Part shown: piece by piece, positions 14,936-30,895 of the stretch | How the letters are laid out: the number at the start of each line of letters is the position of its first letter | How positions within the stretch are numbered: the stretch's first letter is position 1 | NCBI GenBank assembly: GCA_035719525.1 | Contig: DASTFY010000247.1 | Location: forward strand, 1 to 41,431 | Reading direction: 5' to 3' | DNA: 41,431 bases | Source of the DNA: Acidimicrobiales bacterium | GTDB taxonomy: Bacteria > Actinomycetota > Acidimicrobiia > Acidimicrobiales > Ilumatobacteraceae | Notes under the pieces: generated by a model | Databases searched by the model: none | Seen by the model: the letters and a program-made list of their open reading frames with translations, nothing else | Told to the model about the DNA's origin: nothing | Made by a program: the position numbers and the translations under genes

Positions 14936-14943
14936 GGGTTTTC

Positions 14944-15576: not shown

Positions 15577-15593
15577 CCGACGTCACCACGTGC

Positions 15594-15638: not shown

Positions 15639-15715
15639 ACGACTCCGCCGGCGACGACGGTGGGCAACTCGGCGAGGCGGTGACGGCCGAGGGCTGCGAG
15701 CGCGATCCTTTGTGC

Positions 15716-16123
15716 ATGCGCATCGCCTTTGGCACGGATGAGCGCACCGAGCTGAGCGACCACGTCCGGCGGCTGCTGCTGGAGGGCGGTCACGAGGTAG
15801 AGGAGGCCGGCGACGGTGACCCCTGGCCTGATGTCGGCCGCCGGGTGGGTGAGCTGGTGGCCTCGCAGCGTTGCCAGCGGGGCGTGGTGTGCTGCTGGAC
15901 CGGGACCGGCGTCTCGATGGCGGCCAACAAGGTGCCCGGCGTGCGGGCCGCGCTGTGCACCGACGCCGAGACAGCACGGGGGGCCCGTCGGTGGAACGAC
16001 GCCAACGTGCTGGCCTTCGGTCTGCGACTCACCAGCCCGACCGTGGCGGGCGAGATGATCGAGGCCTTCCTGAAGACGGGGCCCGACGCCGCCGAGGCGG
16101 CCAACATCGCCAAGCTCACCTGA
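15716..16123 (+). CDS. RpiB/LacA/LacB-family sugar-phosphate isomerase
   Basis: ATG at 15716. MRIAFGTDE......CCWTGTGVSMAANKVPGVRAALC.D...A...R.WNDANVLAFG matches the RpiB pattern. Confidence 0.8.
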   Translation: MRIAFGTDERTELSDHVRRLLLEGGHEVEEAGDGDPWPDVGRRVGELVASQRCQRGVVCCWTGTGVSMAANKVPGVRAALCTDAETARGARRWNDANVLAFGLRLTSPTVAGEMIEAFLKTGPDAAEAANIAKLT

Positions 16124-16322
16124 CCCCTGCGACGACGGCCTGCCACACTGCCCGGCGTGGTCGCCGGCGAGCTGCTCCCACACCTACGCCGGGCGCGCCG
16201 CCTTACGGTAAGGGAACTGGTCACGCCGATCGCGCTGAGCACGATCTGGCGTGACCGCTTCAGCCGCTGAGCTGTTGCGGCCGCAAGCCTCCCCCCGAGG
16301 AATCGGCGGCCACAACAGATGG

Positions 16323-17072
16323 TCACGCCATCGGGAGGCGAGCGTGGGTGATGCGGGTCGAGCCGGCGGTGATGTGTCGGAGGCCGAGCCACACTCCGAG
16401 GAGGAGGTCGGCTCCCGAGGTGTGGCCGAGCGCGGCTACCGCCGCCTCGTGTCGCCGGACCGAGGCGCGGTCGCCATCGACGACCGCGGCGAGCAGGCGA
16501 TGAACCGGTTCCACTGCCTGACCGCGAGCCGCCCAGCGGAGGAAGGCCAGCGAGATCGGATGGGTGCGCGCGTGCTCGACACCCCGCAGCTCCTCGCGTG
16601 AGGCCCCGGCCAATGCGAGGACCAGCACCATGCCGGCCAGGACGTCGTCGCCTGATGGGGTGAGCCCAGGCCCCCGACCGCCGAGGCGATCCACGACGGT
16701 CGCCAGCCCGCCCGCCGCGTGCGCAGCCTCTATCTCGTCGACCATCGCGGCCAGCGGGGACGCCGTCCAGCCGTCCAACAGTGCGAACCCGGTCGGGGCG
16801 GCGTGGGCCAGCGCCTCCGCATCGAGGCCCAGCGGGCGCCAGTGCGCCGCGCCGGTCCAGTCCAGGTGGAGCTGCTGGCCCGGCGCCGCCGCTGGTAGCT
16901 CGGCCAGGCGGAGGTGCAGCGGACCCGGCGGCACCGAGGGTCCCACGAGAGCCAGGGTCCCTGCGACGACGTCCACGTAGACGGCCCGGTCGAACGCCGC
17001 CAGCACCCGCCCTTCGGCCCGCGTCGAGCCGAGCGCGAACCAGCCCTCCCCGGCGTCAAGGATCAACGTCAC
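16323..17072 (-). CDS. DUF2877-family protein (YlbF/AllH-like)
   Basis: GRGPGLTPSGDDVLAGMVLV motif. The GTG start at 17072 overlaps the DUF1116 gene by 17 nt. Confidence 0.65.
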   Translation of the reverse strand: MTLILDAGEGWFALGSTRAEGRVLAAFDRAVYVDVVAGTLALVGPSVPPGPLHLRLAELPAAAPGQQLHLDWTGAAHWRPLGLDAEALAHAAPTGFALLDGWTASPLAAMVDEIEAAHAAGGLATVVDRLGGRGPGLTPSGDDVLAGMVLVLALAGASREELRGVEHARTHPISLAFLRWAARGQAVEPVHRLLAAVVDGDRASVRRHEAAVAALGHTSGADLLLGVWLGLRHITAGSTRITHARLPMA

Positions 17073-18489
17073 GGTCCAGCGCCAACAGCGCGGCCCGGAA
17101 GCACTCGACGGGTGCGGTGGCGACGCCGGCGCCCACCTGTCCGGAGCCGTCCGACGCGTGCAGGATGCCCGTCGTCACCCTCGGCGTGATGCCAAGCTCC
17201 ACCACCTTGCGCACGTCGACGCCGAGGGGGGTGCCGCGCCAGCCCAGCGTCGGCAGCGTGAAGCGGCTGCTCCGCCCGGCGCAAATCTGATCGAGTTGTC
17301 CCGTCATCGCGGCGGCGTCGGCCATCGTGCCGCCCACGAACGCCGCCACCGAAGGGGACCCGGCCGCCGCGGACCCGCCGAGGCCGACCAGCTCCAGCAC
17401 CGCGCTGTCCCCGACGTCCCGAGCACTGGTCTCCGGGCCCTGACCGGCGTAGTAGAGCGCCTGGCCGATGGGCGGAGCGGCACACAGGTGCCACTCGTTC
17501 GAGCCCGCCAGCCGGATCCCCAACTCGGTGCCGTTGCGGGCCAGGGCCGTCACGATGGACGAGCCCGGCACAAGGGCCGCCCAGTCGGTGAGCGCGCGGG
17601 CTGCGGCCATGGCCACCGTGAGGAAGAACAGGTGGTTGGCCGACAGGAATCGCGCCACGTCCACCCGAGCGGGGTGGTCCGAGGCCACCAGATGCGGTAG
17701 GAGGTTGCGGAGAAAGAGGTTGGTGGTGGCCTGCACCCGGATGTGGACGTCGTCGCCCATCTGCACCCCCTGGGCGGCCAGGCCGAGGACGTCGACGGGG
17801 CCGTGGCCGGCGACGGCATCGGCCAGCACGGGGCCGACGGCGTCGGCGAGGAAGCGCAGGCGCTCGACGGCGGCCGGCGTCTCGCGCCCGAACCATGGCG
17901 TTTCGCCTGGTCCCTGGTTGACCGGCGCGAACGCAGGCGGCGTCTCCGGGCTCTCGACGACCCAGACCGGCTGTGAGGGGCCGAGCGCGGTCACCATCGG
18001 GACCACGGTCTGGTGGCGGTGCGCGGCGTCGAGTACCACCTCACCGTCGGCGAGCTGTCGGCCCGCCTCCTCGACTGTGGCGGCCCAGCCCTCGGCGACC
18101 ACCGTGGCCCGCATCGAGCGGCGGAGTGGATCGCAGGCCTCCGCGTAGTCGACGGGCGGGCCGCAGTGGAGGAGCATGCGGCCTTCCAGGCCGGGCACGG
18201 TCTCCCCGGCGGGCGCGACGGCGACGGCGCGAGGATGGCCCTCGTCGAGCCGGCGGAGCACCTCGGCGTTGGCCGCGTCGATGGCGGCGGTCCGGGGGCC
18301 GTAGAGGCGGCGCAGCGCGGCGACGAGCTGCGGGTCGCCCTCGGCCGGGATCCGCCAGTCGACCGTGGCCAGCGGGTAGCCCTGCGCGGCGACGGCGTCG
18401 GCGAAGCGGGACAGCCCCACGTTCACCACGGCGGCCGACTCCGGCAGCGCGGGGACGACACGTCCGGGACCGTCGGTGGTGGAGCTCAC
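17056..18489 (-). CDS. DUF1116-family protein (YlbE/AllG-like)
   Basis: 477 aa with overall YlbE-like layout (NVGL..FA.....QG......DWRPPA.GD N-terminus; C-terminal GxxHA..G.GxxGAG). GTGA overlap with the upstream lyase gene. Confidence 0.7.
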   Translation of the reverse strand: MSSTTDGPGRVVPALPESAAVVNVGLSRFADAVAAQGYPLATVDWRIPAEGDPQLVAALRRLYGPRTAAIDAANAEVLRRLDEGHPRAVAVAPAGETVPGLEGRMLLHCGPPVDYAEACDPLRRSMRATVVAEGWAATVEEAGRQLADGEVVLDAAHRHQTVVPMVTALGPSQPVWVVESPETPPAFAPVNQGPGETPWFGRETPAAVERLRFLADAVGPVLADAVAGHGPVDVLGLAAQGVQMGDDVHIRVQATTNLFLRNLLPHLVASDHPARVDVARFLSANHLFFLTVAMAAARALTDWAALVPGSSIVTALARNGTELGIRLAGSNEWHLCAAPPIGQALYYAGQGPETSARDVGDSAVLELVGLGGSAAAGSPSVAAFVGGTMADAAAMTGQLDQICAGRSSRFTLPTLGWRGTPLGVDVRKVVELGITPRVTTGILHASDGSGQVGAGVATAPVECFRAALLALDRDVDP

Positions 18490-19970
18490 GGTCCCCGCCG
18501 CCCACCGGCCAGCCGGCGGGTGCGCGCCCTCACCTCGGCCTCGGCGCCGTCGAAACGCGAGAGCAGCCCGTCGGCCGCCACCTGGAGCCGCTCGGCCGTG
18601 GCGCGGATCTCGGACACCATCGCATCGACCGCGCCCGGCGCCGCGCCGCCCGTCCCGGTGCGGGAGGCCACCACCGCAGCGGGATCGAGCACCACAGCCA
18701 GGTCGGCGGCGGTGATCTCCAGGGGGTGTCCCAGCACCGAGCGGGCGGCCGCATCGAGGTCGGAGGGCGTCAGGTCAGCGGCGACGCGCCCGTCGGCGGC
18801 GAGGTCACGCACCGCCTGCCCCACCACCTGGTACGCGCGCCGGTAGTCGAGCCCGGTGCGCAGCATGACCTCCTCGGCGACATCGGTGGCCTGGCTGAAA
18901 CCGTGCTCCAGCCGGTCGAGCATCCGGGCCTCGTTGATGACGAGCGTCTCCACCACGCCGGCGGTCAGATCGGTCATCCGGTGGGTGTGCGCCACCAGGG
19001 TGGGGAGCTCGCCGTAGACGAAGATGAGTGAGTCGCTTCGCGCCGACGGGCTCTTCTGGATCGCCAGCAATCCGGTGAGCCCTCCGATGACCAGCCCGGC
19101 GGTTCCGCGGATCATCGACAGCGCGTAGGGATTGCGCTTCTGGGGCATGAGCACGCTGGAGCGGCTGAACCCGTCGGCCAGGTCGACGTAGTCGAACTCG
19201 GAACTGGCCCAGATCTCGAGGTCCTCGGCCAGCGAGGTCTGCGTACAGGCGAGGCTGGACGCGGTCGCCGCGAGCTGCACCAGCCCGTCGACCTGCCACA
19301 TGGCGTCGCGGGTGTTGACGATGACCTCGCTGAAGCCCAGCGACGCGGCGAACGATGTCCGTTCGGTCACCAGCCGGCTGCCGTTGACGCAACCGGCACC
19401 GCCGGGGCTGCCGTTGATCCAGGTGACGATCTCGAGCAGCCGGGCGGCGTCCCGCTGCACGGGGTAGGCGAACGAAGTGAGGTAGTGCCCGATCGTGGAC
19501 GGCTGCGCCTGCTGCAGGTACGTGTGGTCGGCGAAGAGGGTGTCTCGATGCTCGTGCGCACGCTCGGCCAGGGCCCGGGCCAGCCGCGCCGCGGACAGGA
19601 CGAGGTTGCACACCTGGCGCCGGAGATGGAGGCGGAAGGCGACACGCGTCGCCTCCCGTCGGGGCCGGCCGGCGTGCAGCCATCCCGCGGTGTCCCCCAG
19701 ACGACCGGTGAAGACCCGTTCCCGCGAGTTGTACGGCTCCCCGGCGGCGGCGTCATAGCCGAACCCGTCGGCCTCGACCGAGTCGGCCTCGAGTAGCACC
19801 GCGGCCAGCGCTTCCGCGTCATCGTCCGGCACGATCCCGTGGCCGTGCTGCTGCAGCAGGTGCGCCATGTCGGCCAGGTTGAGACCATCGTGAAGGATGC
19901 CCGCCCAGGCGATCTCGTACGCGAAGCCGGCCTCGACCAGCTCGGGAGCCGGCGCGCCGGCGGCGTTCAT
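18486..19970 (-). CDS. argininosuccinate-lyase-like enzyme (fumarate lyase superfamily)
   Basis: ATG at 19970 (ATGA overlap with the upstream gene). HTYLQQAQP and the signature SRSSVLMPQKRNPYAL. Confidence 0.8.
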   Translation of the reverse strand: MNAAGAPAPELVEAGFAYEIAWAGILHDGLNLADMAHLLQQHGHGIVPDDDAEALAAVLLEADSVEADGFGYDAAAGEPYNSRERVFTGRLGDTAGWLHAGRPRREATRVAFRLHLRRQVCNLVLSAARLARALAERAHEHRDTLFADHTYLQQAQPSTIGHYLTSFAYPVQRDAARLLEIVTWINGSPGGAGCVNGSRLVTERTSFAASLGFSEVIVNTRDAMWQVDGLVQLAATASSLACTQTSLAEDLEIWASSEFDYVDLADGFSRSSVLMPQKRNPYALSMIRGTAGLVIGGLTGLLAIQKSPSARSDSLIFVYGELPTLVAHTHRMTDLTAGVVETLVINEARMLDRLEHGFSQATDVAEEVMLRTGLDYRRAYQVVGQAVRDLAADGRVAADLTPSDLDAAARSVLGHPLEITAADLAVVLDPAAVVASRTGTGGAAPGAVDAMVSEIRATAERLQVAADGLLSRFDGAEAEVRARTRRLAGGRRGP

Positions 19971-21325
19971 GGCCACTGGTCCGGAGTGGCGGCGAGATAG
20001 GCCCGGACCCGCGCCGCGACGACGTCGGCATCGTGCTCGGCGGTGGGAATCCGGACATCGGTCACCAGCGTCTGCAACTCCTCGCCGGAGATGATCCCCG
20101 CCGCGGTCACCGCGCCCACCAGATCGTCGGCCACGGCGCCGGCCAGCATCGTTTGCAGTTCGGCCTGGGCCCGGTGCTTTCCCACTCGCTGGGCGTAGGC
20201 ACCCAGGACCCGCTCCGAGGACAACCGGCCCCGGCCGGTCTCCACATTGGCCCGCATCCGCTCGGCATCCACCTCGAGGCCGGCCACCAGGTCCAGGGCC
20301 AGCGCCAGCGCGCTCGAGGTCAGCAGGCAGACCTCGGGCACGGCCAACCATTCCGCCTTCCAGGCCCGGCCGTCGCGTTCGTGGATCTGCACCACGCCCT
20401 CCAGCAGCACCGCGGTCTGCGCTCTGACCAGTCGGGCGATCGTGTCGAGATGCTCGCTGCGCTCGGGGTTGCGCTTGTGGGGCATGGTGATGCTGCCGAC
20501 GACGCCCTCCCGGGTGGGCTCCCGCAGCTCGGCGATCTCATCGCGCTGGAGCTCCATGACCTCATTGCCGATGCGGGCCAGGGTGCCGGTGACGAGGGCC
20601 AGCAGCCCGGCCTGCTCCGCCCACCGGTCCCGGCTCGTGAGCCAGCTGATGCCGGGGTCGGCCAGGCCGAGGCGGTGGCAGAACCGGGAGCGCAGCTCGG
20701 GCCCGACCTCACCGAAGAAGCCGAGGGTGCCGACCGCACCGCCGAGCTGGCCGACCAGCCAACGCCTTCGACCGTCCTCCAGCCGCTGGAGGTGGCGGAC
20801 GATCTCGTCGGCCCATGACGCCACCTTCCACCCGAAGGTCACCGGCGCTCCGGGCTGGGCGTGGGTGCGCCCGGGCATCACGGTGCTCCGGTGGCGCTCG
20901 GTCAGGTCCACCAGCAGCGCGGCGAGCGCGCGGAGGTCCCGCCACACCAGCCCCATCACGCGCCGGGCGGCGAGCACCGTCCAGGTGTCGGTCAGGTCCT
21001 GAACGGTGGCGCCGTAGTAGACGAACTCCGCGGCGTCGTCGGGGAGCACTCGTTGGAGCGCGTGGATCAGGCCCAGTGTCGAGTGCGAGGTCCGGCGCGT
21101 CTCGGCCGCCAGGAAGTCGACGTCCAGCTTCTCGATCCGTGCCTCCCTGGCGATGCCCGCCGCCGCCGGGGCCGGGATGATGCCCAACTCGGCCTGGGCC
21201 TGGGCGAGTGCCACCAGGATGTCGAGCCAGGCTTGCCGGCGGGCGTCGTCGTCGAAGACCGCCCTCGCCTCGTCCGTGCCCCAGAGGTGCGCGTACTCCG
21301 CGCTGTCGCTCAGGCGGGCGCCCAC
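19967..21325 (-). CDS. adenylosuccinate lyase / 3-carboxymuconate cycloisomerase-like enzyme (fumarate lyase superfamily)
   Basis: Probable GTG start at 21325. YGATVQDLTDT, GRTHAQPG.P.TFG and the signature GSITMPHKRNPERSE. The 708-aa track ORF is an artefactual extension. Confidence 0.8.
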   Translation of the reverse strand: MGARLSDSAEYAHLWGTDEARAVFDDDARRQAWLDILVALAQAQAELGIIPAPAAAGIAREARIEKLDVDFLAAETRRTSHSTLGLIHALQRVLPDDAAEFVYYGATVQDLTDTWTVLAARRVMGLVWRDLRALAALLVDLTERHRSTVMPGRTHAQPGAPVTFGWKVASWADEIVRHLQRLEDGRRRWLVGQLGGAVGTLGFFGEVGPELRSRFCHRLGLADPGISWLTSRDRWAEQAGLLALVTGTLARIGNEVMELQRDEIAELREPTREGVVGSITMPHKRNPERSEHLDTIARLVRAQTAVLLEGVVQIHERDGRAWKAEWLAVPEVCLLTSSALALALDLVAGLEVDAERMRANVETGRGRLSSERVLGAYAQRVGKHRAQAELQTMLAGAVADDLVGAVTAAGIISGEELQTLVTDVRIPTAEHDADVVAARVRAYLAATPDQWP

Positions 21326-22194
21326 GCCGGCACCGCCTGGTGGGCGAGCGCGCGCAGAGCCTCCCGCACCTGTTCCAATGTGGCCCCCCAGGGCACGACG
21401 GCCCGCTGGTCCCGGCCGCTGCCCTCCAGCTCGATGCGGTCCTCCAGGAGGCAGCACTTGGTGAGCACGGGGCCCTGTCCCGCGTCGGGCCGGGCGCGGG
21501 GACAGAAGTCGATCGTCGGCGGGCGCTCTCCGTAGAACCACCGGTGGATCTCCTGCGACCGGGCACAGCCGAGCAGCGTCCACTCCTGCGGCGGCGGGCG
21601 CTGATCGAGGTACCAGGTGGCACCGCTCGGCACCGTGATGCCGGAGCCGCGGCAGGGCAGCAGCACGTCGCCCTGGGGCGGGGCCAGCGCGGCGAGATCG
21701 ACGAGCTCCGGCTGGAGCAGCACGGGCGGGAGCTCCTCGGCCACGTCCAGGACTCGCTGGGCCTGGTCCACGAGCTTGGCCGGGATGGGCGGTACCACCT
21801 CCCGTACCCTGACCACCACGGGCTCCGGGTCGAGCAGGAAGTTCACGTGGTGGTATCGGCCCTCCACCACCACGCAGCGGGCCGACGGATGCTCGGCGGC
21901 GACGCGGGCGAGCTGTGAGGGGACGCCGGTGTCGGTGTCGGGACGGCGGACGAGCACCGTCTCGTCCGGACCGGCCAGCACGGTCACCCGGCGAGCAGGG
22001 GAGAACAACGGGCCGGTGTCGTCGAGCTCCACCTCGACCAGCGCGTGGCCGCCAGCGCCGACCGCCACGACGTAGCGCGTCCTGCGGTAGCACTCCCGAC
22101 CCAGGAAGTGCGCCACCAGCGCGTCCTCGGTGAGGGGCACGTCGACATCGCTGACCGAGACCTGCCGGTAGGCGCCGGGAACGAGGTTGCCCAC
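21310..22194 (-). CDS. hypothetical protein, no recognisable family
   Basis: GTG at 22194 with a GAGGG RBS, 9 nt after the ComA stop. Strong GC3 bias. Its 3' end overlaps the next gene. Cys-containing motifs: LLPCRGSG, LLGCARSQEIH, DFCPRAR, TKCCLLED. Confidence 0.55.
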   Translation of the reverse strand: MGNLVPGAYRQVSVSDVDVPLTEDALVAHFLGRECYRRTRYVVAVGAGGHALVEVELDDTGPLFSPARRVTVLAGPDETVLVRRPDTDTGVPSQLARVAAEHPSARCVVVEGRYHHVNFLLDPEPVVVRVREVVPPIPAKLVDQAQRVLDVAEELPPVLLQPELVDLAALAPPQGDVLLPCRGSGITVPSGATWYLDQRPPPQEWTLLGCARSQEIHRWFYGERPPTIDFCPRARPDAGQGPVLTKCCLLEDRIELEGSGRDQRAVVPWGATLEQVREALRALAHQAVPAWAPA

Positions 22195-22202
22195 GCCCGC
22201 CC

Positions 22203-22985
22203 TCAGGATCGGACCGGGATCTGCCGTAGCAGGGCGGACGCCGTGGTGTCGGCCCGCAGCCCGAGGCGGAGCGCCTCCAGCCCCATCGCGTCCCGCGGGG
22301 CCACGTTCGAGAGGTTGACCTGCGATCCGACGTGGTTGACGAACCATGCCTGCTGGTCCTTGCGCGGCGCCTCGAACATCAGCCGCTCCGTCCCGACGCG
22401 CTCCACCAGAGCCTCGACCACGTCCGTTCGGACTCGGCCGTCCGGCCCGTAGATGCCCACGGTGCCGCTCTCGCGTCCCTCCGTGATCACCCAGGTCGCC
22501 CCGGCGTCCAGGTCGGCGAGGGCGAGCTCGACCCAGGCGCCGGCGGTCAGCGCCGGTTGCGGATCCTTGGTGCCGACCTCGGCGATGACGGGCACGCAGC
22601 TTCCGACGCGCCGGATGAGCGCCGCCTTGCGCTCGGCGCCGAGCAGGTCGAGGCCGTCACTCACCTCGAGGAACGGGAACCCGCACTCCAACGCCCATTC
22701 CAAGAACGCGTCGACTCGGTCCTGGAGGGCGGCGATCTCGAGCAGGGTGCCTCCGGGGCAGGGGGCCACGCCATGGCGGCGCAACACCGCGAGCTTGGCC
22801 GCCAGCCGGGGATCGAGGTAGGAGCTGCCCCAGCCGAGCTTCCAGAGATCGATGAAGCCGGCGTTGGTGTCCAGGACGGCGTCCACGTCCTCCACCGGCA
22901 GCCCGCCGTCGATCACGGCGGTGATGCCGTGTGAGCGTGGCTTGGCCGGGCGTTGCTCCAGGTCGAGGAACGTCGGCCGGCCCAT
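22203..22985 (-). CDS. phosphosulfolactate synthase (ComA) family protein
   Basis: 260 aa. KPR..G.T.V.D.G........D.L......IDL.K.GWG.S resembles ComA/(2R)-phospho-3-sulfolactate synthase. First gene of a six-gene coupled operon. Confidence 0.75.
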   Translation of the reverse strand: MGRPTFLDLEQRPAKPRSHGITAVIDGGLPVEDVDAVLDTNAGFIDLWKLGWGSSYLDPRLAAKLAVLRRHGVAPCPGGTLLEIAALQDRVDAFLEWALECGFPFLEVSDGLDLLGAERKAALIRRVGSCVPVIAEVGTKDPQPALTAGAWVELALADLDAGATWVITEGRESGTVGIYGPDGRVRTDVVEALVERVGTERLMFEAPRKDQQAWFVNHVGSQVNLSNVAPRDAMGLEALRLGLRADTTASALLRQIPVRS

Positions 22986-22992
22986 GTCTCTT

Positions 22993-23021
22993 ATGGTAAA
23001 CGGTCACCTACTATCGTTCAA
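22993..23021 (-). promoter_or_regulatory. candidate sigma-70-like promoter for the ComA operon (leaderless)
   Basis: On the minus strand: TTGAAC, 17 nt, TACCAT, 7 nt, then the ATG (22985). The whole divergent intergenic region is only 38 bp. Confidence 0.45.
23009..23014 (+). promoter_or_regulatory. candidate -10 TACTAT for the AIR-synthase-related gene (leaderless)
   Basis: TACTAT ends 9 nt before the ATG at 23024. No clear -35 element. Confidence 0.3.
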
Positions 23022-23023
23022 CC

Positions 23024-24031
23024 ATGCAGGACCACGGCAGCGGCGACCGTGACGACCTGCGCACCATCATCGCCGCCGTGCGCTCCAGCGGGGGCTGGAC
23101 GTCCAAGGCCAGCATCGGCCAGGTCGGCGAGGTGCTCGGTCGCCCGGACTGGTTGACCGGACCGGGGGACGACGGTGCCGTCGTGCGGGCCGGCGACGAC
23201 TCGCTGGTCGTCTGCGGTGAGGCCATCCTGCCCGCGTTCGTCGAGCGGGACCCGTACGGCGCCGGCGTCGCCGCCGTGCTGGCCAACGTCAACGACGTCG
23301 CCGCCATGGGCGCCGTTCCCCTCGCCGTGGTCGACACCCTGGTCGGGGACGACGCCACTTGCCGGGCGGCGCTGGAGGGCATGCGCTTCGCGTCGGCCCT
23401 GTACGACGTGCCGGTGGTGGGCGGGCACCTGACCCGCAGCCCTGACCGCACCGCGCTCTCCGCGTTCGCGCTGGGCCGCTGCCCCGGCCCCGTGCTCTCG
23501 GCCACTCATGTCCGGCCCGGTCACCAACTCGGCCTGCTCGGCTGCCTGGAAGGCACCATGCGGTCCGACTTCCCGTTCTTCCCCTCCTTCGACGAGCGGG
23601 GCGACCGCCTCGCCGGGGACGTCCGCCTGCTGGCGGCGCTGGCCGGGGACGGATCGTGCGTGGCGGCCAAGGACGTGAGCATGGCGGGGCTGCTCGGCAG
23701 CCTGGCGATGCTGCTGGAGCCCACCCGAACCGGTGTCGTCCTCGACCTCGACGACGTTCCCGTTCCCGCTGGAGTCGGGTTGCTCGAGTGGCTGGTGTGC
23801 TTCCCGTGTCTGGTGTTCCTCGTGTGCGGCCCGCCGGCCGAAGCAGCGACGATCGCGACGGCAGCCGAGGACCGCGGCCTGACGTACGCGCCACTCGGCA
23901 CCATCGACGGCAGTGGGGTGGTCGCCCTCCGGCGGGGGGACGAGTCGTCCGAGCTGATCGATCTCCGCTCCGAGGGGATCACCCGGCTGCCACCCCCAAA
24001 CGGGGCCGTCCCCCTCGCTACAGATCGATGA
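23024..24031 (+). CDS. AIR-synthase-related protein, sll0787 family (Nit1C component)
   Basis: PurM-like motifs DDGAVV, AVLANVNDVAAMGA.P, GGH. The size and context match the sll0787/MSMEG_0566 type. Confidence 0.75.
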   Translation: MQDHGSGDRDDLRTIIAAVRSSGGWTSKASIGQVGEVLGRPDWLTGPGDDGAVVRAGDDSLVVCGEAILPAFVERDPYGAGVAAVLANVNDVAAMGAVPLAVVDTLVGDDATCRAALEGMRFASALYDVPVVGGHLTRSPDRTALSAFALGRCPGPVLSATHVRPGHQLGLLGCLEGTMRSDFPFFPSFDERGDRLAGDVRLLAALAGDGSCVAAKDVSMAGLLGSLAMLLEPTRTGVVLDLDDVPVPAGVGLLEWLVCFPCLVFLVCGPPAEAATIATAAEDRGLTYAPLGTIDGSGVVALRRGDESSELIDLRSEGITRLPPPNGAVPLATDR

Positions 24032-24488
24032 CCATCGGCTGGTGCTCCACACCGACGTAGATCTCCCTCGGCCCGTCCGTTCGCCATCCCAGACGTCGGA
24101 AGAAGCCGACGTTGGCCGGCTGGATGTGCGCGACCATGCGCTGCCCGCCCAGGCGGCCCGCCGTGGCGACCGCGAAGCGCACGAGCGGTGCGCCCGTGCT
24201 GTGCCGCCGGTACGCGTGGGCGACGGCCAGGCGATCGCCCTGCCACAGCAGGCTGCTCGGCTCCAGCGGGTAGAGGCGCACTGTCCCGGCCGGTTGGCCG
24301 TCCCACAGGGCCAGCACCTTGAGCGTGGACGGATCGTCGTCATGCCCGTCCCGGTCGTCGGGGTCGAACAGCCCCTGCTCCTCGACGAAGACCTCCGCGC
24401 GGATCCGATGGTGGTGGTGGAGGCTCCATGCGTCGTCAACGAGGCGGCACTCGGCGGCCGGGGCGGCGATCGCCGTCGGCTCAGCCAC
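24018..24488 (-). CDS. GNAT N-acetyltransferase, MSMEG_0567/Sll0786 family (Nit1C component)
   Basis: GTG at 24488 (8-nt overlap with the radical SAM gene). R.EVFVEEQGLF..DDRD..DD, GTVRLYP and ...W.GDRLAV...R....G..LVRFAV..A...G...M.A.IQ..N..FF.RLGW match the family pattern. Confidence 0.75.
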   Translation of the reverse strand: MAEPTAIAAPAAECRLVDDAWSLHHHHRIRAEVFVEEQGLFDPDDRDGHDDDPSTLKVLALWDGQPAGTVRLYPLEPSSLLWQGDRLAVAHAYRRHSTGAPLVRFAVATAGRLGGQRMVAHIQPANVGFFRRLGWRTDGPREIYVGVEHQPMVIDL

Positions 24489-25653
24489 CGGCGACGGCGA
24501 CCGTGGGCTTGCGGCCGATCTGGAGGTGGCGTTCCACCGCGGCCATGGGGGAGCAGGCGTTGCAGCGCGAGCACCCGGCCTTCGCCGTGCCCGAGCCGAT
24601 GCCGCCGCCCTCGAGGTGGGCGGCCACGCGACGGGCGATGCGCTCGACGTCGATCGGGTCGGGGGGCGACCAGTCGGCCATGAGGCTCCCGGCCACCGGC
24701 CGCAGCGGCACGACGAAGGGGTAGACCCCGGCGTCGATGGCGCGCCGGCATCCCTCGACGACGAGGTCGGGATCCTCACCCATGCCAATGATGACGTAGG
24801 TGGTCACCTGGCCCCGGCCGAAGAGCGCCACCGCCCGCTCCCAGGCCTCGAAGTAGCGCGCGATGCCGGTTCGGGCCTTGGCCGGAGCGACCCTTTCCAG
24901 CACGGTCGGGTCGAACGTCTCGACGTGGATGCCGACAGTGTCGGCGCCCAGCGCGTGGACGCGGTCGATGACGTCGAGATCCTCTGGCGGTTCGAACTGC
25001 ACCTCGACCGGCAGACCGCTGGCCTCCTTGACCGCCTGGGCGCACTGCCCGACGTACAGGGCGCCTCGGTCGGGTGCGCGTGTGCTCCCGGTCGTCAGGG
25101 TGACGTCCACGGCGCCATCGAGGTCCCGCGCCGCCACCGCCACCTCGGCGAGTTGGGACGGCGTCTTCTTGGCGATCGTGCGGCCGGAGGCGAGCGACAC
25201 GCCGATACCGCAGAAGGTGCACTGGTCGTCGTTCCCCCAGTAGGCGCAGGTCTGGAGGACGGTGCTGGCCAGCGAGTCGAGGTGGAGGAGCGCGATCTTC
25301 CAGTACGGGACGCCCTCGGCCGTCTCCAGGTCGTAGAAGCGCGGGCGGGGCTGGGTCCGGGCGCCGGCCACCCGGCGGCCGTGCTCGTAGATGGCGACAC
25401 CGCCGACGGGACCATCGCCTCGCGTCTCGTCCCCGCGGAGCTCGAAGGGCGAGTGCAGCGTCCGCTCCGGGTCGGTGTCGAGCGTCAGCGCGAGGTCCTC
25501 CACCCAGATCATGCCGACATCGGACGGCCCGGCTCCACCGCGACGACCCTCGGTGGCCACCGCCACCCTCAGCCCTTCCGACTGCAGCCGGAGGACCACC
25601 GCCGCCAGATCGTCGTGTGCGGGATCCTCGTGTCGGATCATGACCAGCGACAT
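24481..25653 (-). CDS. radical SAM protein, MSMEG_0568 family (Nit1C component)
   Basis: 390 aa. Cys triad C136-x8-C145-x2-C148 (CAYWGNDDQCTFCG), a TIM-barrel-like core and a C-terminal CSRCNAC. ATG lies 3 nt after the upstream stop. Confidence 0.8.
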   Translation of the reverse strand: MSLVMIRHEDPAHDDLAAVVLRLQSEGLRVAVATEGRRGGAGPSDVGMIWVEDLALTLDTDPERTLHSPFELRGDETRGDGPVGGVAIYEHGRRVAGARTQPRPRFYDLETAEGVPYWKIALLHLDSLASTVLQTCAYWGNDDQCTFCGIGVSLASGRTIAKKTPSQLAEVAVAARDLDGAVDVTLTTGSTRAPDRGALYVGQCAQAVKEASGLPVEVQFEPPEDLDVIDRVHALGADTVGIHVETFDPTVLERVAPAKARTGIARYFEAWERAVALFGRGQVTTYVIIGMGEDPDLVVEGCRRAIDAGVYPFVVPLRPVAGSLMADWSPPDPIDVERIARRVAAHLEGGGIGSGTAKAGCSRCNACSPMAAVERHLQIGRKPTVAVAGG

Positions 25654-25656
25654 TTA

Positions 25657-26319
25657 CTATGGGTGATGGCGAGCGTCAACCTCCACACCCCACTCGCCAG
25701 CCAATCGCCGGAGGATCTCGTCCCACCCGCTCCTGTCCCGAGCCACCAACTCGTCGGTCTCCGAGCCCTCGTGGGAGGTCACCTCGCCGGTGTCCAGGTC
25801 GACGTCGACAGGCACCAACCGCCACTGTGGTTCTCCGGTGTCGAGGTCGGGCTCCAGCGTCGTGCGGACCCCACGGGCCAGGCCGAGGTGAACGCGGAGC
25901 TCGGGCACGGTGGACAGGAGTCCGATGGTCGCCGGAGACGCCACATCCACCCACGAGGCACCCGACTCCCGCGCCGCTCCGAACGCCTCGACGCGGCGCT
26001 GCTGGTCCTCTGCCTGGGTGATCTCGCGGTCGCGGGTGGCGCAGGCGGCGGCGACCAGGTCGTCGGGGGCCAGCCCGACGAGCTGCAGGGCACCGAGATC
26101 GAGGCGGGTGAGCGCCTCGGTCGGGTCACGACTGAAGGCCAGCAGGCCCTGGTGATCATGGACGTCCTCGCGCAAGAAGGCCAGCAATCCGCCCACCGCC
26201 TCGATGGCCTGCTGATAGGCCGGCACGCTGATCATGGCCAGGGGGTAGACGCGGGCTTCCGCCGCGCTCCACCGGCCGCGGGCGGCCCCCAGCTCGTGGT
26301 CGGCGGGTGCGGGCGTCAC
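25657..26319 (-). CDS. hypothetical protein, no recognisable family
   Basis: GTG at 26319 with a strong AAGGAGG RBS 5 nt upstream. GC3-biased. First gene of the hyp-rSAM-GNAT operon. Confidence 0.6.
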   Translation of the reverse strand: MTPAPADHELGAARGRWSAAEARVYPLAMISVPAYQQAIEAVGGLLAFLREDVHDHQGLLAFSRDPTEALTRLDLGALQLVGLAPDDLVAAACATRDREITQAEDQQRRVEAFGAARESGASWVDVASPATIGLLSTVPELRVHLGLARGVRTTLEPDLDTGEPQWRLVPVDVDLDTGEVTSHEGSETDELVARDRSGWDEILRRLAGEWGVEVDARHHP

Positions 26320-26351
26320 CGTCCTCCTTCTGCGGAAGTTCCCTCCGGCTG

Positions 26352-26380
26352 TTGACGATCCTACGTTTCATTTCCACTAT
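26352..26380 (+). promoter_or_regulatory. candidate promoter for the carbamate kinase-FdrA-glycosyltransferase operon
   Basis: TTGACG (26352-26357), 17 nt, CACTAT (26375-26380). The GTG start is 11 nt downstream, so the leader is very short or absent. Confidence 0.4.
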
Positions 26381-26391
26381 CCTCAACAAGC

Positions 26392-27360
26392 GTGGGAGGA
26401 CGCGCCGTTGTCGCCCTCGGTGGCAACGCCCTCGTCGGGTCGGGCGAGGCGGGTACGTACCGGGAGCAATGTGCGCGCGCCCGCGCCATGGCCGAGCCCG
26501 TCGCCGGGCTCGTGTCATCGGGCTGGCAGGTGGTCCTCGTCCACGGCAACGGGCCCCAGGTCGGCGCGCTCGCCCTCCAGCAGGAATCGGCTCGCGCCGT
26601 GGTGCCCGGCCAGCCGCTCTTCTCGCTGGTGGCCATGACGCAGGGCGCCACCGGGAGCCTGCTGACCCTCGCGCTGAGGGAGCGGCTCGGCCCGCGGCCA
26701 CCCGTCGTATCCATGGTCACCCATACCATCGTCCACGGCGACGACCCGGCCTTCACGGCGCCGACGAAGCCGATCGGGCCCTTCCTAGACGAGGCAGAGG
26801 CGCGGCAACTCGCGCTCGAACGGGGCTGGACGGTGGTCGACGACTCCGGCCGGGGCTGGCGACGGGTCGTGCCGTCGCCCGAGCCGCTGGGGCTGCTGGA
26901 GTTGGCGACGGTGAGGGCGCTGGTGGAGATCGGCGCGGTCGTCATCGCCAGCGGCGGTGGTGGCATCCCCGTCGTCATGACCGGGCGGGGCTACCGCGGC
27001 ATCGAAGCGGTGGTCGACAAGGATCTGGCCGCGGGACGACTCGCCTCCGATCTCGGCGTCGACGCGCTGGCCATCGTCACCGAGGTGCCCGCCGCCGCCG
27101 TCGACTTCGGCACGCCGGCCGAGCGGCCCCTCGGGGACGTGCCCGTCGGGGAGGCCGAACGGCTTCTGGCGGCCGGGCAGTTCGCCGCCGGGAGCATGGG
27201 CCCGAAGGTCGAGGCGGCCGCCCGGTTCGTCCGCCAAGGCGGCTCGATGGCCGTGATCACCTCCGTCGACCGGCTGCTGGCCACCCTGTCGCCAGGTGCC
27301 GGGCGAGCGCCGACCGGCACCCGGATCCGGCCGGAGGGCCAGCCGGCCCCCGCCGGATGA
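26392..27360 (+). CDS. arcC: carbamate kinase
   Basis: RAVVALGGNAL, VLVHGNGPQVG, KPIGPF, GGGGIPV and VVDKDL are classic carbamate kinase / amino-acid-kinase motifs. Confidence 0.85.
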   Translation: MGGRAVVALGGNALVGSGEAGTYREQCARARAMAEPVAGLVSSGWQVVLVHGNGPQVGALALQQESARAVVPGQPLFSLVAMTQGATGSLLTLALRERLGPRPPVVSMVTHTIVHGDDPAFTAPTKPIGPFLDEAEARQLALERGWTVVDDSGRGWRRVVPSPEPLGLLELATVRALVEIGAVVIASGGGGIPVVMTGRGYRGIEAVVDKDLAAGRLASDLGVDALAIVTEVPAAAVDFGTPAERPLGDVPVGEAERLLAAGQFAAGSMGPKVEAAARFVRQGGSMAVITSVDRLLATLSPGAGRAPTGTRIRPEGQPAPAG

Positions 27361-28910
27361 GCAGCGCGGTGGCCGCCGTCCTCCGCCGCCTCGCCGACAC
27401 CTACGTCGACTCCGTGCTGCTGCTGGCTGCCACCCGCGCCATGCAAGAGGTCGAAGGAGTCACCTGGGCGACGGCGGTCATGGCCACGCCGGCGAACCTC
27501 GAGGCACTCGAAGACCAGGGTGTCACTGGACCAGAGCTCTCAGGCGCCGCCGCCAACGACCTGGTGCTGGCCGTTCGAGCCGGCGACGCGGCCGCGGCCG
27601 ACCGGGCCCTGGATGGCGGGACCTCGGCGGTGCGGGGCCAGCGGTCGGGCGCAGGAGAACCCGGGCCGGTACCAGCGGCGCGGGACCTAGCCTTGGCGGC
27701 TCGGGAGCTGCCGGGGGCCAACATCGCCATCGTCTCGGTGCCGGGCGCCTATGCCGCCCTCGAGGCCCACAAGGCGCTCTCGGCCGGGTTGGACGTATTG
27801 CTGTTCAGCGACAACGTTCCCGTCGATGAGGAAGTCGAGCTGAAGCGGCGCGCCGCCGAGGTCGGCCACCTGGTGATGGGCCCGGGGGCCGGCACGGCCG
27901 TGCTCGGCGGCTGCGGCCTGGGCTTCGCCAACCGCGTGCGGCCCGGCCGAGTCGGGGTGGTGGCGGCCGCCGGCACCGGTGCCCAGGAGGTCATGAGCCT
28001 CCTCGACCAGTGGGGAGAGGGGATCAGTCAGGTCATCGGGGTGGGCGGCCGCGACCTGTCGAGCGCCGTCGGCGGGGCCATGGCGACGTTGGCTGTCCAG
28101 GCGCTCGACGCCGATCCGGCCACCGAGGTCATACTGCTGGTCTCCAAGCCGCCGGCGCCGGACGTGGCCCGACGGGTGGCTTCCGCGGCGGTGGCGACAC
28201 CGCTGGTCGCGGGGATGGTCGGGTGGCCGGCCGGCACCGCCCTGGCCGGCGCGGCCGCCGTCCGCTCGACGCTGGAAGGTGCGGCGCTCAGCACCCTGGA
28301 GGTGCTCGGGCAACCACCACCGCGCCCCGACAGCGCGTTGGCGGCCTCGGTCCGTCGCGCCATCGAACACCTCCCGCCCTCCCGCACGCTGGTACGGGGC
28401 CTCTACTCGGGTGGCACGCTCTGCTACGAGGCGCTGAGCCTGCTCGAGCCGGCGCTGGGACCGGTCTGGTCGAACACGCCGCTCGACCCCCGCTACCGCG
28501 TGCCCGCACCTGCCGATGCGCACGTCTGCCTCGACCTGGGCGAGGAGGAGTACACGCAGGGCCGCCCCCACCCGATGATCGACCCGGAAGCGCGACTCGA
28601 CGAGCTGGAGGCGCTGCGAACGGCCGGGGACGTCGCGGCCGTCGTGCTGGACGTGGTGCTCGGCTACGGGGCCCATCCCGATCCTGCGGCCGTCCTGGCG
28701 CCGGTCTGTGCGGAGCTGACCGGCCCCGGTGGCCCGTGCGTCGTCGTGTACGTGCTGGGCACCGAAGGCGATCCCCAGGGCCTGGCCCGGCAGCGGGCCG
28801 CGTTGGTGGAAGCCGGCTGCATCGTGGCCCCCACCGGCGCACGGGCCGCGCTCGCCGCGGCGGCGATCGCAACCCGGGACCCGATGCTGGTGGAGCAGAC
28901 CGTTCCGTGA
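27357..28910 (+). CDS. FdrA-family protein (AllF-like, succinyl-CoA-synthetase-like fold)
   Basis: ATG at 27357 (ATGA overlap with arcC). YVDSV.LL..............A.MATP.N. at the N-terminus, then NIAIVSVPG.YA and GPG.GTA...........VG.V.A.GTG.QE. Confidence 0.75.
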   Translation: MSSAVAAVLRRLADTYVDSVLLLAATRAMQEVEGVTWATAVMATPANLEALEDQGVTGPELSGAAANDLVLAVRAGDAAAADRALDGGTSAVRGQRSGAGEPGPVPAARDLALAARELPGANIAIVSVPGAYAALEAHKALSAGLDVLLFSDNVPVDEEVELKRRAAEVGHLVMGPGAGTAVLGGCGLGFANRVRPGRVGVVAAAGTGAQEVMSLLDQWGEGISQVIGVGGRDLSSAVGGAMATLAVQALDADPATEVILLVSKPPAPDVARRVASAAVATPLVAGMVGWPAGTALAGAAAVRSTLEGAALSTLEVLGQPPPRPDSALAASVRRAIEHLPPSRTLVRGLYSGGTLCYEALSLLEPALGPVWSNTPLDPRYRVPAPADAHVCLDLGEEEYTQGRPHPMIDPEARLDELEALRTAGDVAAVVLDVVLGYGAHPDPAAVLAPVCAELTGPGGPCVVVYVLGTEGDPQGLARQRAALVEAGCIVAPTGARAALAAAAIATRDPMLVEQTVP

Positions 28911-30070
28911 CGGCGGTCGCGCTCGTCACCTACTCGACCAAGCCGCGGGGCGGCGTCGTGCACACCGTGTGCCTGGGCGAGGCGCTGGTCCGGGAGGGCC
29001 TCGACGTGGAGGTCATCGCGCTCGGGGATCCCGCCGCCGGCTTCTTCCGGCCCGTCGCGGTGCCGCACCGCTTCCTTCCCGCGCCGGCACATCTGGACAC
29101 ACTCGAGGAGCGGGTGATGGCCTCGGTCGACGCGCTGGCCGACGGGCTACGGCGCATGGCCGACGCGGGAGACCTGCCGCCGATCCTCCACACCCAGGAC
29201 TGCATCTCCGCCCGGGCCGCGGTGCGCGTACGCGACGAAGGGATGCCGGTGCGCGTGTTGCGCACCGTGCACCACGTCGACGACTTCACCACACCGGCCC
29301 TGATCGAGTGCCAGCTCCGATCGATCCTCGACCCCGACCGATGCTTCGTGGTCAGCCGGATGTGGCAGCAGCGGTTGTTCGACGAGTACGGCGTCGTCGC
29401 GGAGGTGGTGGGCAACGGGGTGGACGTCGACCGCTTCGCCGCCGCTCCCTCACGCGCTCGCCTGGCGGCCCGGCGCGCCGAGGTCGGGGCGACCGGTCGG
29501 TTCCTCGTCCTGTCCGTCGGCGGCATCGAACCCCGCAAGGGCAGTGACCATCTGGTGCGCTCCTTGGCGCTCCTGGCGGATCGGCTGGACCACCGACCCG
29601 TCCTGGCCGTGGTCGGTGGCCACTCGTTCCAGGATCACCGCGCCTATCGGGAGAACGTGCTGGCGTCACTGCCCGCCCTCGGCTTGGAGCTCGGGCGCGA
29701 TGTCGTGCTCCTCGGTACGGTGCCGGACGGCGACCTGCCGTGCTGGTACCACGCGGCCGACGTCTTCGCCTTCCCGTCCGTGAACGAGGGCTTCGGGCTG
29801 GCGGTGCTGGAAGCGCTGGCCGCCGGAACGCCCACCGTCGTGGCCGATCTGCCCGTCTTCCGGGAGTACCTGACCTACGGGCGCGATGTGCTGGCGGTCC
29901 CGCCCGGCGATGACACCGCCCTCGCCGACGCGCTGCACTGCATCGCCACCGACCCTTCCCTGCGAGGCCGCCTGGCCGGTGCCGGGCGCCAGGTCGCCGC
30001 TCGCTTCACCTGGACCCGCGCCGCCGAACAACACCTGGCCGTCTACCGCTCGCTACCCCCGCTGCCGTAG
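28907..30070 (+). CDS. glycosyltransferase, MSMEG_0565 family (Nit1C component; GT-B/GT4-like)
   Basis: GTG at 28907 (GTGA overlap with fdrA-like). ALVTYSTKPRGGVVHT N-terminus and the C-terminal FPS..EGFGL..LEALA.G.P. Confidence 0.75.
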   Translation: MTAVALVTYSTKPRGGVVHTVCLGEALVREGLDVEVIALGDPAAGFFRPVAVPHRFLPAPAHLDTLEERVMASVDALADGLRRMADAGDLPPILHTQDCISARAAVRVRDEGMPVRVLRTVHHVDDFTTPALIECQLRSILDPDRCFVVSRMWQQRLFDEYGVVAEVVGNGVDVDRFAAAPSRARLAARRAEVGATGRFLVLSVGGIEPRKGSDHLVRSLALLADRLDHRPVLAVVGGHSFQDHRAYRENVLASLPALGLELGRDVVLLGTVPDGDLPCWYHAADVFAFPSVNEGFGLAVLEALAAGTPTVVADLPVFREYLTYGRDVLAVPPGDDTALADALHCIATDPSLRGRLAGAGRQVAARFTWTRAAEQHLAVYRSLPPLP

Positions 30071-30085
30071 CGGACGCCGAGGTCG

Positions 30086-30850: not shown

Positions 30851-30895
30851 GGGCGGACGATAGCGCCGGGCCACCGGTGAGACGATGGGAAGACG

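Follow-up and report, generated by a model that had tools for sequence, protein, structure and literature searches.

In a 41,431-nucleotide stretch of DNA from an Acidimicrobiales bacterium (Ilumatobacteraceae; assembly GCA_035719525.1, contig DASTFY010000247.1, hereafter the window), homologues of the Escherichia coli AllF (FdrA), AllG and AllH proteins and of the carbamate kinase AllK are encoded among genes that resemble the Nit1C cluster. In E. coli, AllFGH interconverts oxamate plus carbamoyl phosphate and oxalurate plus phosphate (PMC11326118), and the carbamate kinase AllK acts in catabolism (PMC9843812). No chemistry has been assigned to Nit1C (PMC1199592). The question raised by this locus is whether the carbamoyl-transfer genes belong to the surrounding cluster and, if so, on which compound they act. 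We found that AllFGH and carbamate kinase are fixed, co-inherited parts of the cluster, which occurs in more than 100 loci from several bacterial phyla. The cluster joins five parts: Nit1C families, a nitrile-hydrolysing enzyme, the Xcb sulfoacrylate branch, thiol-redox proteins, and AllFGH with carbamate kinase.

AllFGH and carbamate kinase homologues in two operons

Because the window has a G+C content of 71%, open reading frames (ORFs) were chosen by third-position GC and then tested against the profile libraries Pfam and NCBIfam (window ORFs 218-38124). The AllG homologue (17056-18489, minus strand) matched DUF1116 (PF06545, 199.8 bits, E 5.2e-59) and PDB entry 3clq (E 1.3e-62), and the AllH homologue (16323-17072, minus strand) matched DUF2877 (PF11392, 82.9 bits, E 3.3e-23). 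The FdrA/AllF homologue (27357-28910, plus strand) was recognized by NF004760 (395.6 bits, E 3e-118) and by PDB entry 3dmy (E 3.6e-71). The carbamate kinase (26392-27360, plus strand) matched PF00696, passed the PRK12352 model (NF009007, 281.8 bits, cut-off 266) and scored 338.7 bits on TIGR00746 (arcC), just under the cut-off of 358.25. Identity to the E. coli K-12 proteins was 39% for AllF, 36% for AllG, 34% for AllH and, over the N-terminal 187 residues of AllK only, 44%. The Pfam, NCBIfam, PDB and E. coli comparisons all agree with the four family assignments made in a preliminary description of the locus. Its statement that allantoin and ureidoglycolate genes are missing from the window is supported by the profile scans and by tblastn, in which E. 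coli AllC, AllD, AllE and GlxK had no match in the window and 108 related loci (1.26 Mb together). By sequence comparison, the four genes are true homologues of allF, allG, allH and allK, and do not form an allantoin module.

The split of these genes over two operons, also described earlier, is real. AllG and AllH close a minus-strand operon with the order ComA/XcbB-XcbA-XcbD-XcbC-AllG-AllH, in which all neighbouring genes overlap or lie almost end to end and a GTGA overlap joins the XcbC-like gene to the start of AllG. Carbamate kinase and FdrA lie on the plus strand and overlap in the sequence ATGA (27357-27360), and FdrA in turn overlaps a glycosyltransferase gene in the sequence GTGA (28907-28910); both couplings had been noted before and are present in the sequence.

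The boundary between FdrA and AllG is not the same as in E. coli. Residues 13-62 of the window AllG (18306-18453, minus strand) match residues 505-554 of E. coli FdrA, which are its last 50 residues, and this C-terminal tail is missing from the window FdrA. Among 1.84 billion representatives, a full HMMER search retrieved 2536 relatives, with many FdrA-AllG fusions of about 1000 amino acids among them, in which the AllG region (aligned from about query residue 17) is preceded by about 500 residues. Together, the fusions and the shifted tail indicate that the point at which the genes are split differs between lineages and that the boundary has moved. In three loci (L023, L028 and L120) the carbamate kinase-FdrA pair lies directly beside AllG-AllH, but in divergent orientation. 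Because of the tail match, the natural fusions and this juxtaposition, we propose that FdrA, AllG and AllH most likely form one complex despite their separation over two operons.

Conservation of the linkage between the gene sets

Linkage was surveyed from both sides. One genome per GTDB species was scanned with the window AllG, which yielded 28 loci, all in metagenome-assembled genomes (MAGs), from four phyla (Acidimicrobiales and other Actinomycetota, Chloroflexota, Dormiibacterota and one Bacillota). The gene content of loci was determined by tblastn with all window proteins. In the reverse test, metagenomes were searched with an alignment of the radical SAM (rSAM) protein of the cluster, and the best 80 of 544 relatives (60-79% identity) were examined; window-like neighbours were present in all of these 80. 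At least one of carbamate kinase, FdrA, AllG and AllH was found in 37 of the 38 metagenome loci of at least 8 kb, the lone exception having just 766 nt on the relevant side. An arrangement in which carbamate kinase-FdrA-glycosyltransferase diverges from the genes for a 220-amino-acid protein, rSAM and GNAT was almost invariant in the metagenome loci, and carbamate kinase was found in all window-type loci with enough flank. The preliminary description had allowed that the two modules might be neighbours by chance, with no conserved linkage. Instead, AllG relatives carry the rSAM, GNAT, AIRS-like and glycosyltransferase genes, rSAM relatives carry carbamate kinase, FdrA and AllG, and this reciprocal linkage holds in essentially every locus with enough flank.

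The conserved unit comprises about 21 genes in about 20 kb (10532-30070), so that the earlier description recognized a real cluster and underestimated its extent. It overlooked that a cobalt-type nitrile hydratase stands where Nit1C has its nitrilase, and that the unit includes CoA-disulfide-reductase-like, OsmC and DsrE-like genes. Outside this block no counterparts were detected by tblastn: on the upstream side the genes for kynureninase, FAD monooxygenase, amidohydrolase and RidA are not conserved, and neither are DLH, LLM, Fic and others on the downstream side. At least five gene orders occur among lineages, and the gene set stays together. It was also found in cultured Actinomycetota and Pseudomonadota, by which the cluster is represented overall in Actinomycetota, Chloroflexota, Dormiibacterota, Bacillota and Pseudomonadota. 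Because the gene set persists through rearrangements, between unrelated flanks and in several phyla, the linkage is not a matter of chance. The idea that the modules are adjacent by chance, or through a recent insertion in one genome, has nothing in its favour beyond the two-operon split and is refuted by the synteny of the 28 genome and 80 metagenome loci; we regard its probability as negligible.

Cultured hosts surfaced only when a Methylocystis-type AllG was used as query, the scan with the window AllG having given MAGs only. An intermediate form of the cluster is found on a plasmid of Methylocystis iwaonis (L112), a cultured methanotroph, with a CoA-disulfide-reductase-like (CoADR-like) protein, a 92-amino-acid protein, a DsrE-like protein, AllG (55%), the glycosyltransferase, FdrA, an HTH-cupin regulator, the AIRS-like protein, GNAT and rSAM. 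It also encodes a Nit6803 nitrilase, OsmC, ComA, XcbA, XcbD, an XcbE-like pyridoxal phosphate (PLP) enzyme and XcbC, and is without carbamate kinase, AllH and nitrile hydratase. Its FdrA (L112:18694-20418, minus strand) scored 390 bits on NF004760, under the cut-off, and bears only the name "oxidoreductase" in RefSeq, so that annotation-based surveys miss the association. The AllG of this plasmid retrieved isolates of Kribbella, Nocardioides, Paraburkholderia, Hoeflea and Ruegeria and an uncultured Ilumatobacter.

The relatives differ in arrangement and in the accompanying nitrile-hydrolysing enzyme. In Kribbella and Nocardioides, the series carbamate kinase-FdrA-glycosyltransferase diverges from an unassigned gene followed by rSAM and GNAT, and AIRS, AllG-AllH and ComA-XcbA-XcbD-PALP-XcbC are present as well. 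Hoeflea and Ruegeria have ComA-XcbA-XcbD-XcbC-CoADR on one strand, diverging from a region with nitrile hydratase, OsmC, DUF1097 and AllG-AllH. In a Piscinibacter MAG (L120), the series carbamate kinase-FdrA-ComA-XcbA-XcbD-PALP-XcbC, with a nitrilase beyond its end, diverges from AllG-AllH, and an MSMEG_0570-like gene, AIRS, GNAT and rSAM complete the locus; its nitrilase is of the Nit6803 type and stands alongside carbamate kinase, FdrA, AllG and AllH, with no hydratase. Nitrilase accompanies an rSAM of the canonical type (66-71% identity to that of M. extorquens). Kribbella and Nocardioides have a window-type rSAM (62% identity) and no nitrilase was seen; any hydratase would lie outside the fetched flank. 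AllG, FdrA, the Xcb proteins, the glycosyltransferase and the CoADR-like and DsrE-like proteins are about 45-67% similar alike in loci with either rSAM type. In Kribbella pittospori (L114) and Nocardioides aquiterrae (L116), the cluster lies between Calvin-cycle genes, with PRK/FBPase on one side and GAPDH on the other or nearby. CbtA/CbtB cobalt transporter genes adjoin it in both, and a large SARP/BTAD regulator is inserted after AllH.

Other genes of the conserved block

The most constant partner of AllG is the Xcb set, which was found in every context examined: ComA-XcbA-XcbD-XcbC adjoins AllG in Kribbella, Nocardioides, Hoeflea, Ruegeria, Paraburkholderia, Piscinibacter and Methylocystis. 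In Xanthobacter, the enzymes XcbB, XcbC, XcbD, XcbE and XcbA turn phosphoenolpyruvate and sulfite into coenzyme M (CoM) by way of sulfoacrylate and a cysteine adduct, with XcbC eliminating phosphate from phosphosulfolactate (PMC9457059). One recent paper states that, outside methanogens and alkene users, no genes for CoM biosynthesis are known (PMC11507031). As in Xanthobacter autotrophicus Py2 (PMC9457059), the window encodes ComA/XcbB, XcbA, an XcbD-like and an XcbC-like protein in one operon, that is, four of the five enzymes of the bacterial route. ComA/XcbB (22203-22985, minus strand, as are the next three genes) is encoded first (PF02679, 261.5 bits; the archaeal equivalog TIGR03849, 230.9 bits, cut-off 280), followed by an XcbA family/DUF7714 protein (21310-22194; NF052538, 326.9 bits, cut-off 150; PF24830, E 2.5e-90; frame chosen by third-position GC), the XcbD-like adenylosuccinate-lyase-family enzyme (19967-21325; NF052536, 572.4 bits) and the XcbC-like argininosuccinate-lyase-family enzyme (18486-19976; NF052535, 404.9 bits). 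For the last two these were the best matches, and both scores are under the curated cut-offs of 600 and 575, respectively. ComA and two lyases had been recognized in the preliminary description, which missed their Xcb identity and the gene at 21310-22194. A 708-amino-acid ORF (19967-22093) taken there as one gene is an artefact, as it runs over the XcbD-like and XcbA-like genes, which are in different frames, and its N-terminal 258 residues are an out-of-frame sequence rich in Arg, Pro and Gly.

The window block differs from the Xanthobacter set in being without the PLP enzyme XcbE. No match to a PALP/XcbE model was found in Pfam and NCBIfam among the scanned genes of the block, and no PALP gene fits inside the window operon because its genes overlap or abut. 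Among the relatives, Methylocystis has a divergent XcbE-like gene (209 bits, cut-off 450), and PALP genes are present in the Kribbella, Nocardioides and Piscinibacter variants. A replacement of XcbE by AllG-AllH was considered and ruled out, since these three hold AllG-AllH together with a PALP gene between XcbD and XcbC. For the scanned window ORFs (218-38124), the general Pfam and NCBIfam scans gave no annotation of the epoxyalkane:CoM transferase type, a check that did not extend to the related loci.

Four of the eight Nit1C (gpr) families, and probably a fifth in the AIR-synthase-related protein, are represented in the window: the DsrE-like MSMEG_0572/Sll0783 protein (Nit1C ORF1, with a single Cys; 12698-13186, minus strand; TIGR04044, 208.4 bits, cut-off 109.85), the MSMEG_0568-family rSAM protein (24481-25653, minus; TIGR04043, 366.6 bits, cut-off 303.7), the MSMEG_0567/Sll0786-type GNAT (24018-24491, minus; TIGR04045, 102.9 bits, cut-off 68.45; Pfam Acetyltransf_1), the sll0787-like AIR-synthase-related protein of the PurM/HypE superfamily (23024-24031, plus; Pfam AIRS and AIRS_C; TIGR04049 as best match, 238.5 bits, cut-off 321.3) and the MSMEG_0565-family GT4 glycosyltransferase (28907-30070, plus; TIGR04047, 365.9 bits, cut-off 259.85). 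These are the families of the published clusters (Podar 2005, PMC1199592; MSMEG_0565-0572, PMC6039565), and four of the five pass the cut-offs; the glycosyltransferase is found in some Nit1C variants. The cluster on pCMU01 of M. extorquens CM4 (L111) consists of the eight textbook genes, without AllFGH, carbamate kinase, Xcb genes or hydratase. The shared proteins are only 37-54% identical to those of M. extorquens CM4 (DsrE-like 54%, rSAM 45%, AIRS-like 37.5%), and canonical plasmid-borne Nit1C rSAMs have only 38-45% identity to the window rSAM. With M. extorquens queries, the nitrilase of the Nit6803 family (subfamily 1), after which Nit1C is named, MSMEG_0570 and MSMEG_0569 had no match in the window or the 108 loci, so that the earlier comparison with Nit1C stands for the rSAM, GNAT, AIRS-like and glycosyltransferase genes and fails for these three. 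In place of the MSMEG_0569 flavoprotein and of MSMEG_0570, a protein of about 100 amino acids, the window has the CoADR-like flavoprotein gene and an unrelated ORF of 89 amino acids. In all, the window cluster adds to Nit1C the nitrile hydratase, AllFGH and carbamate kinase, XcbB/A/D/C, and the CoADR-like, OsmC, 220-amino-acid and 89-amino-acid proteins.

The window rSAM has the cluster motif CX8CX2C (C136, C145 and C148; residues 136-148) in place of CX3CX2C, and also matches the NCBIfam domain "variant_rSAM" (156 bits, cut-off 125). The canonical Nit1C of pCMU01 lies beside sulfite:cytochrome c oxidoreductase genes and the hybrid cluster of the Methylocystis plasmid beside cytochrome bd oxidase genes, each with a GntR-type PLP-domain regulator; these neighbours may hint at links to sulfite and cyanide.

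The nitrile-hydrolysing part is a cobalt-type nitrile hydratase in the window and a Nit6803 nitrilase in some relatives. The hydratase genes lie at the left end of the block on the plus strand and encode the beta subunit (10532-11191; Pfam NHase_beta_N/C; TIGR03888, 192.3 bits, cut-off 152.2), the alpha subunit (11188-11787; TIGR01323, 303.7 bits, cut-off 249.85), with the motif CTLCSC at residue 104, and an accessory protein with a His-rich tail and an uncertain start codon (11750-12253; TIGR03889, 75.7 bits, cut-off 46). On the thiocyanate hydrolase gamma model the alpha subunit scored only 195.9 bits (cut-off 291). The beta subunit has counterparts in 18 of the 28 genome loci (median identity 72%). 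The preliminary description had suggested that nitrile hydration might yield the carbamoyl or ureido compound on which AllFGH acts, with release of NH3, CO2 and ATP. The hydratase is indeed co-conserved, in keeping with a part for nitrile hydration, but this specific chain is weakened because nitrilase-bearing relatives keep AllFGH and carbamate kinase, FdrA and AllG being retained in both Piscinibacter and Methylocystis. As both of these have a nitrilase, the combination of hydratase, AllFGH and carbamate kinase was also ruled out as a general stand-in for nitrilase.

Three proteins suggest thiol or persulfide chemistry: the DsrE-like protein, an OsmC/Ohr-like peroxiredoxin with two Cys residues (Cys57 and Cys117; 12269-12679, plus strand; NCBIfam OsmC-like and Ohr matches) and a single-Cys flavoprotein similar to CoA-disulfide reductase (13512-14903, minus strand; TIGR03385, 225.1 bits, cut-off 578.8; NADH oxidase and related models), with the motif YSPCG at Cys63. 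The OsmC-like gene was found in 21 of the 28 genome loci and the CoADR-like gene in 19 (median 74%), as was the gene for an HTH-cupin regulator (median 66%), which is divergent from the CoADR-like gene (14944-15576, plus strand; Pfam HTH_3 and Cupin_2). Between the CoADR-like and DsrE-like genes lies the 89-amino-acid ORF (13246-13515, minus strand), which falls into none of the known families and has no relationship to MSMEG_0570. A GTGA overlap links its start to the stop of the CoADR-like gene, tblastn gave matches in at least 35 loci, and it is 49% identical to the 92-amino-acid hypothetical protein at the matching position in Methylocystis iwaonis. The 220-amino-acid protein, encoded by the first gene of the rSAM operon (25657-26319, minus strand), is conserved, though fast-evolving (26-57% identity across loci), and has no Pfam or NCBIfam match; its confident AlphaFold model (pLDDT 88, pTM 0.80) gave no PDB fold match at E <= 0.001.

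Several further features were observed in and around the block. The AIRS-like and GNAT genes are convergent and their 3' ends overlap by 14 nt (24018-24031). The divergent spacers are very short, namely 38 nt between ComA and the AIRS-like gene, 72 nt between the 220-amino-acid protein and carbamate kinase, and 40 nt between the CoADR-like gene and the HTH-cupin regulator, which suggests leaderless or tightly shared promoters. A scan for sigma-70 promoters and terminators (12000-31500) was uninformative. The 9-mer AACGGTCAC has exactly two copies in the window, both on the plus strand, one upstream of the nitrile hydratase beta gene (10508-10516) and one inside the ComA/AIRS spacer (22999-23007). 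It may be an operator, but as two matches were reached in 8 of 100 shuffles the signal is only weakly above chance. Between the genes for the HTH-cupin regulator and for AllH, the window encodes a sugar-phosphate isomerase of the RpiB/LacAB family (15590-16123, plus strand); its gene has a counterpart in none of the 28 related loci and looks like a local insertion. Immediately before the nitrile hydratase genes (4879-10389, plus strand) lie genes for RidA, amidohydrolase_2, an FAD monooxygenase and a kynureninase-like protein, which look like a kynurenine or aromatic amine set.

Predicted carbamoyl transfer and its alternatives

The reading we prefer, tentatively and at a little less than an even chance, is that AllFGH and carbamate kinase act as a carbamoyl-phosphate-linked transcarbamoylase and kinase on a pathway-specific intermediate, probably derived from a sulfonate or a thiol. 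The FdrA-AllG-AllH complex would exchange a carbamoyl group between phosphate and a nucleophile, as in E. coli. In place of oxamate, this would be an N- or S-nucleophile specific to the pathway, made by or from the Xcb branch and most plausibly a sulfonated amine or thiol. Carbamate kinase would couple carbamoyl phosphate to ATP, NH3 and CO2. Release, by which nitrogen would be scavenged and ATP gained, is the favoured direction because of the catabolic precedent, E. coli AllFGH and AllK being catabolic (PMC11326118, PMC9843812), and because of the regulation of Nit1C by nitrogen starvation: in mycobacteria, nitrogen starvation raises its expression more than 500-fold and the cluster gives resistance to peroxide (PMC6039565), and cyanide is a further inducer of Nit1C (PMC6039565, PMC7815647).

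Several observations weigh against this reading. The E. coli enzyme has been assayed only in the synthetic (reverse) direction, with a Km of 36.9 mM for oxamate (PMC11326118), which leaves the chemistry of the family thinly established. AllF, AllG and AllH are only 34-39% identical to the E. coli proteins, and the window FdrA stays below the NCBIfam subfamily cut-off of 433 bits. FdrA has no carbamate kinase gene beside it in Methylocystis, in L118 and, it appears, in Paraburkholderia, so that ATP recovery is not obligatory. Most of the cluster (glycosyltransferase, GNAT, rSAM and AIRS-like genes) looks biosynthetic, and no transporter was found among the genes of the conserved block scanned with Pfam and NCBIfam; both points fit an anabolic as well as a catabolic role.

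Several of these points also speak for the anabolic direction, the main rival. Carbamate kinase or a carbamoyl-phosphate synthetase would then supply carbamoyl phosphate and the AllFGH-like complex would carbamoylate a pathway intermediate, after which the AIRS/PurM protein may dehydrate the carbamoyl to a cyano group in the manner of HypF/HypE, with nitrilase or nitrile hydratase acting later on the nitrile. The GT4, GNAT, rSAM and AIRS-like genes, to which PGAP attaches the term "biosynthetic process", the translational coupling of carbamate kinase, FdrA and glycosyltransferase, the lack of a transporter in the block and the in vitro direction of the E. coli enzyme (PMC11326118) are consistent with it. 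So are the clusters that keep FdrA and AllG without carbamate kinase, as expected if the synthetase can supply carbamoyl phosphate, and the membership of the AIRS-like protein in the PurM/HypE superfamily, although its match to HypE is weak (E 9e-4) and it has no C-terminal Cys. Against it, bacterial carbamate kinases are usually catabolic, as is E. coli AllFGHK in vivo (PMC9843812, PMC11326118), and nitrogen starvation, which induces Nit1C (PMC6039565), is a state in which spending carbamoyl phosphate would be costly. We consider the anabolic route less likely than release, and it stays a strong rival because the cluster looks biosynthetic and some relatives are without carbamate kinase.

An enzyme that handles no carbamoyl group at all is improbable. 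FdrA carries the CoA_binding and Ligase_CoA domains of the succinyl-CoA synthetase alpha subunit and its NCBIfam name is acyl-CoA synthetase; AllG always stands beside Xcb genes, and carbamate kinase is dispensable in some relatives. An acyl-phosphate or acyl-thioester enzyme of the succinyl-CoA synthetase kind could thus act on a sulfonated acid of the Xcb branch, with the kinase homologue serving another acyl phosphate or an accessory role. A SucD-like phosphohistidine enzyme was rejected, however, as the His246 loop is conserved neither in the window FdrA nor in that of E. coli. The sole experimental activity of the family is transcarbamoylation (PMC11326118), and the kinase, coupled to FdrA in all window-type loci, passes the cut-off of a carbamate kinase model beside its arcC score of 338.7 bits. 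Even less can be said for an ordinary oxamate carbamoyltransferase and carbamate kinase that break down oxalurate from purines or allantoin and merely stand beside other genes. Homologues of all four E. coli components are present, but AllC, AllD, AllE and GlxK are missing from the window and the 108 loci, the identities to E. coli are low, the FdrA/AllG split point differs, the genes alternate with XcbC and the glycosyltransferase and are coupled to them in translation, and the linkage is conserved across phyla. We judge this explanation very improbable; the substrate of the predicted complex is almost certainly not oxalurate.

With E. coli AllFGH and AllK the cluster shares four homologues, the Pfam families of AllG and AllH, the fold of FdrA and a kinase gene coupled to the FdrA gene. 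It differs in that the genes occupy two operons, interleaved with XcbC and the glycosyltransferase, with no contiguous allF-allG-allH-allK, in the FdrA C-terminal tail that sits on AllG, and in the absence of allantoin genes. A search of the full-text literature found no description of AllFGH or carbamate kinase with Nit1C-type or Xcb-type genes. The nearest published case, from comammox Nitrospira and ammonia-oxidising archaea, is allFGHK adjacent to biuret/triuret hydrolase genes (PMC12625717), where allFGHK has likewise been recruited outside the enterobacterial allantoin regulon and presumably serves a different carbamoyl compound. The nitrifier partners are biuH, atzF and nucleoside transporters (biuret/triuret), in contrast to the rSAM, Xcb and nitrile hydratase genes of the window. 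The parts of the cluster are thus known families; their combination into a Nit1C-derived supercluster is new.

HypF and HypE synthesize the CN ligand of hydrogenases from carbamoyl phosphate, with transfer of the carbamoyl group to a thiol and an ATPase of the PurM/AIRS superfamily that interconverts carboxamide and nitrile. The likeness to the cluster, which has a carbamoyl-phosphate pair, an AIRS-like protein, thiol-related genes and a nitrile-hydrolysing enzyme, is in logic only, as there is no HypF homologue. By this analogy one may conceive of a pathway on a CoM-like sulfonated thiol, in which one-carbon nitrogen units would be interconverted among carbamoyl phosphate, a (thio)carbamoyl adduct and a cyano adduct. 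AllFGH and carbamate kinase would stand at the carbamoyl-phosphate end; the cyano end would fall to the AIRS-like ATPase and to the hydratase or nitrilase, reduction of the thiol would be maintained by OsmC and the CoADR-like protein, and chemistry of the HypF/HypE type would take place on a small molecule. We put this forward as a speculative and improbable scheme. If true, it would give Nit1C its first function, explain why cyanide and nitrogen starvation induce it, and bring CoM-type cofactors into the range of common soil bacteria.

Since 2005 Nit1C has stood as a conserved cluster to which no function is assigned; the identification of AllFGH dates only from 2024, with a single substrate, and bacterial CoM genes were regarded as restricted to alkene oxidisers. 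All three come together in a single gene set, widespread and co-inherited, of which soil metagenomes hold abundant copies. Its culturable hosts, among them Kribbella, Nocardioides, Hoeflea, Ruegeria and Methylocystis, offer material for genetics. For the AllFGH family this is a warning that not every FdrA/DUF1116/DUF2877 set should be annotated as oxalurate catabolism. Three separate puzzles become one testable pathway, with sulfonated thiols or amines, carbamoyl phosphate and nitriles as candidate substrates.

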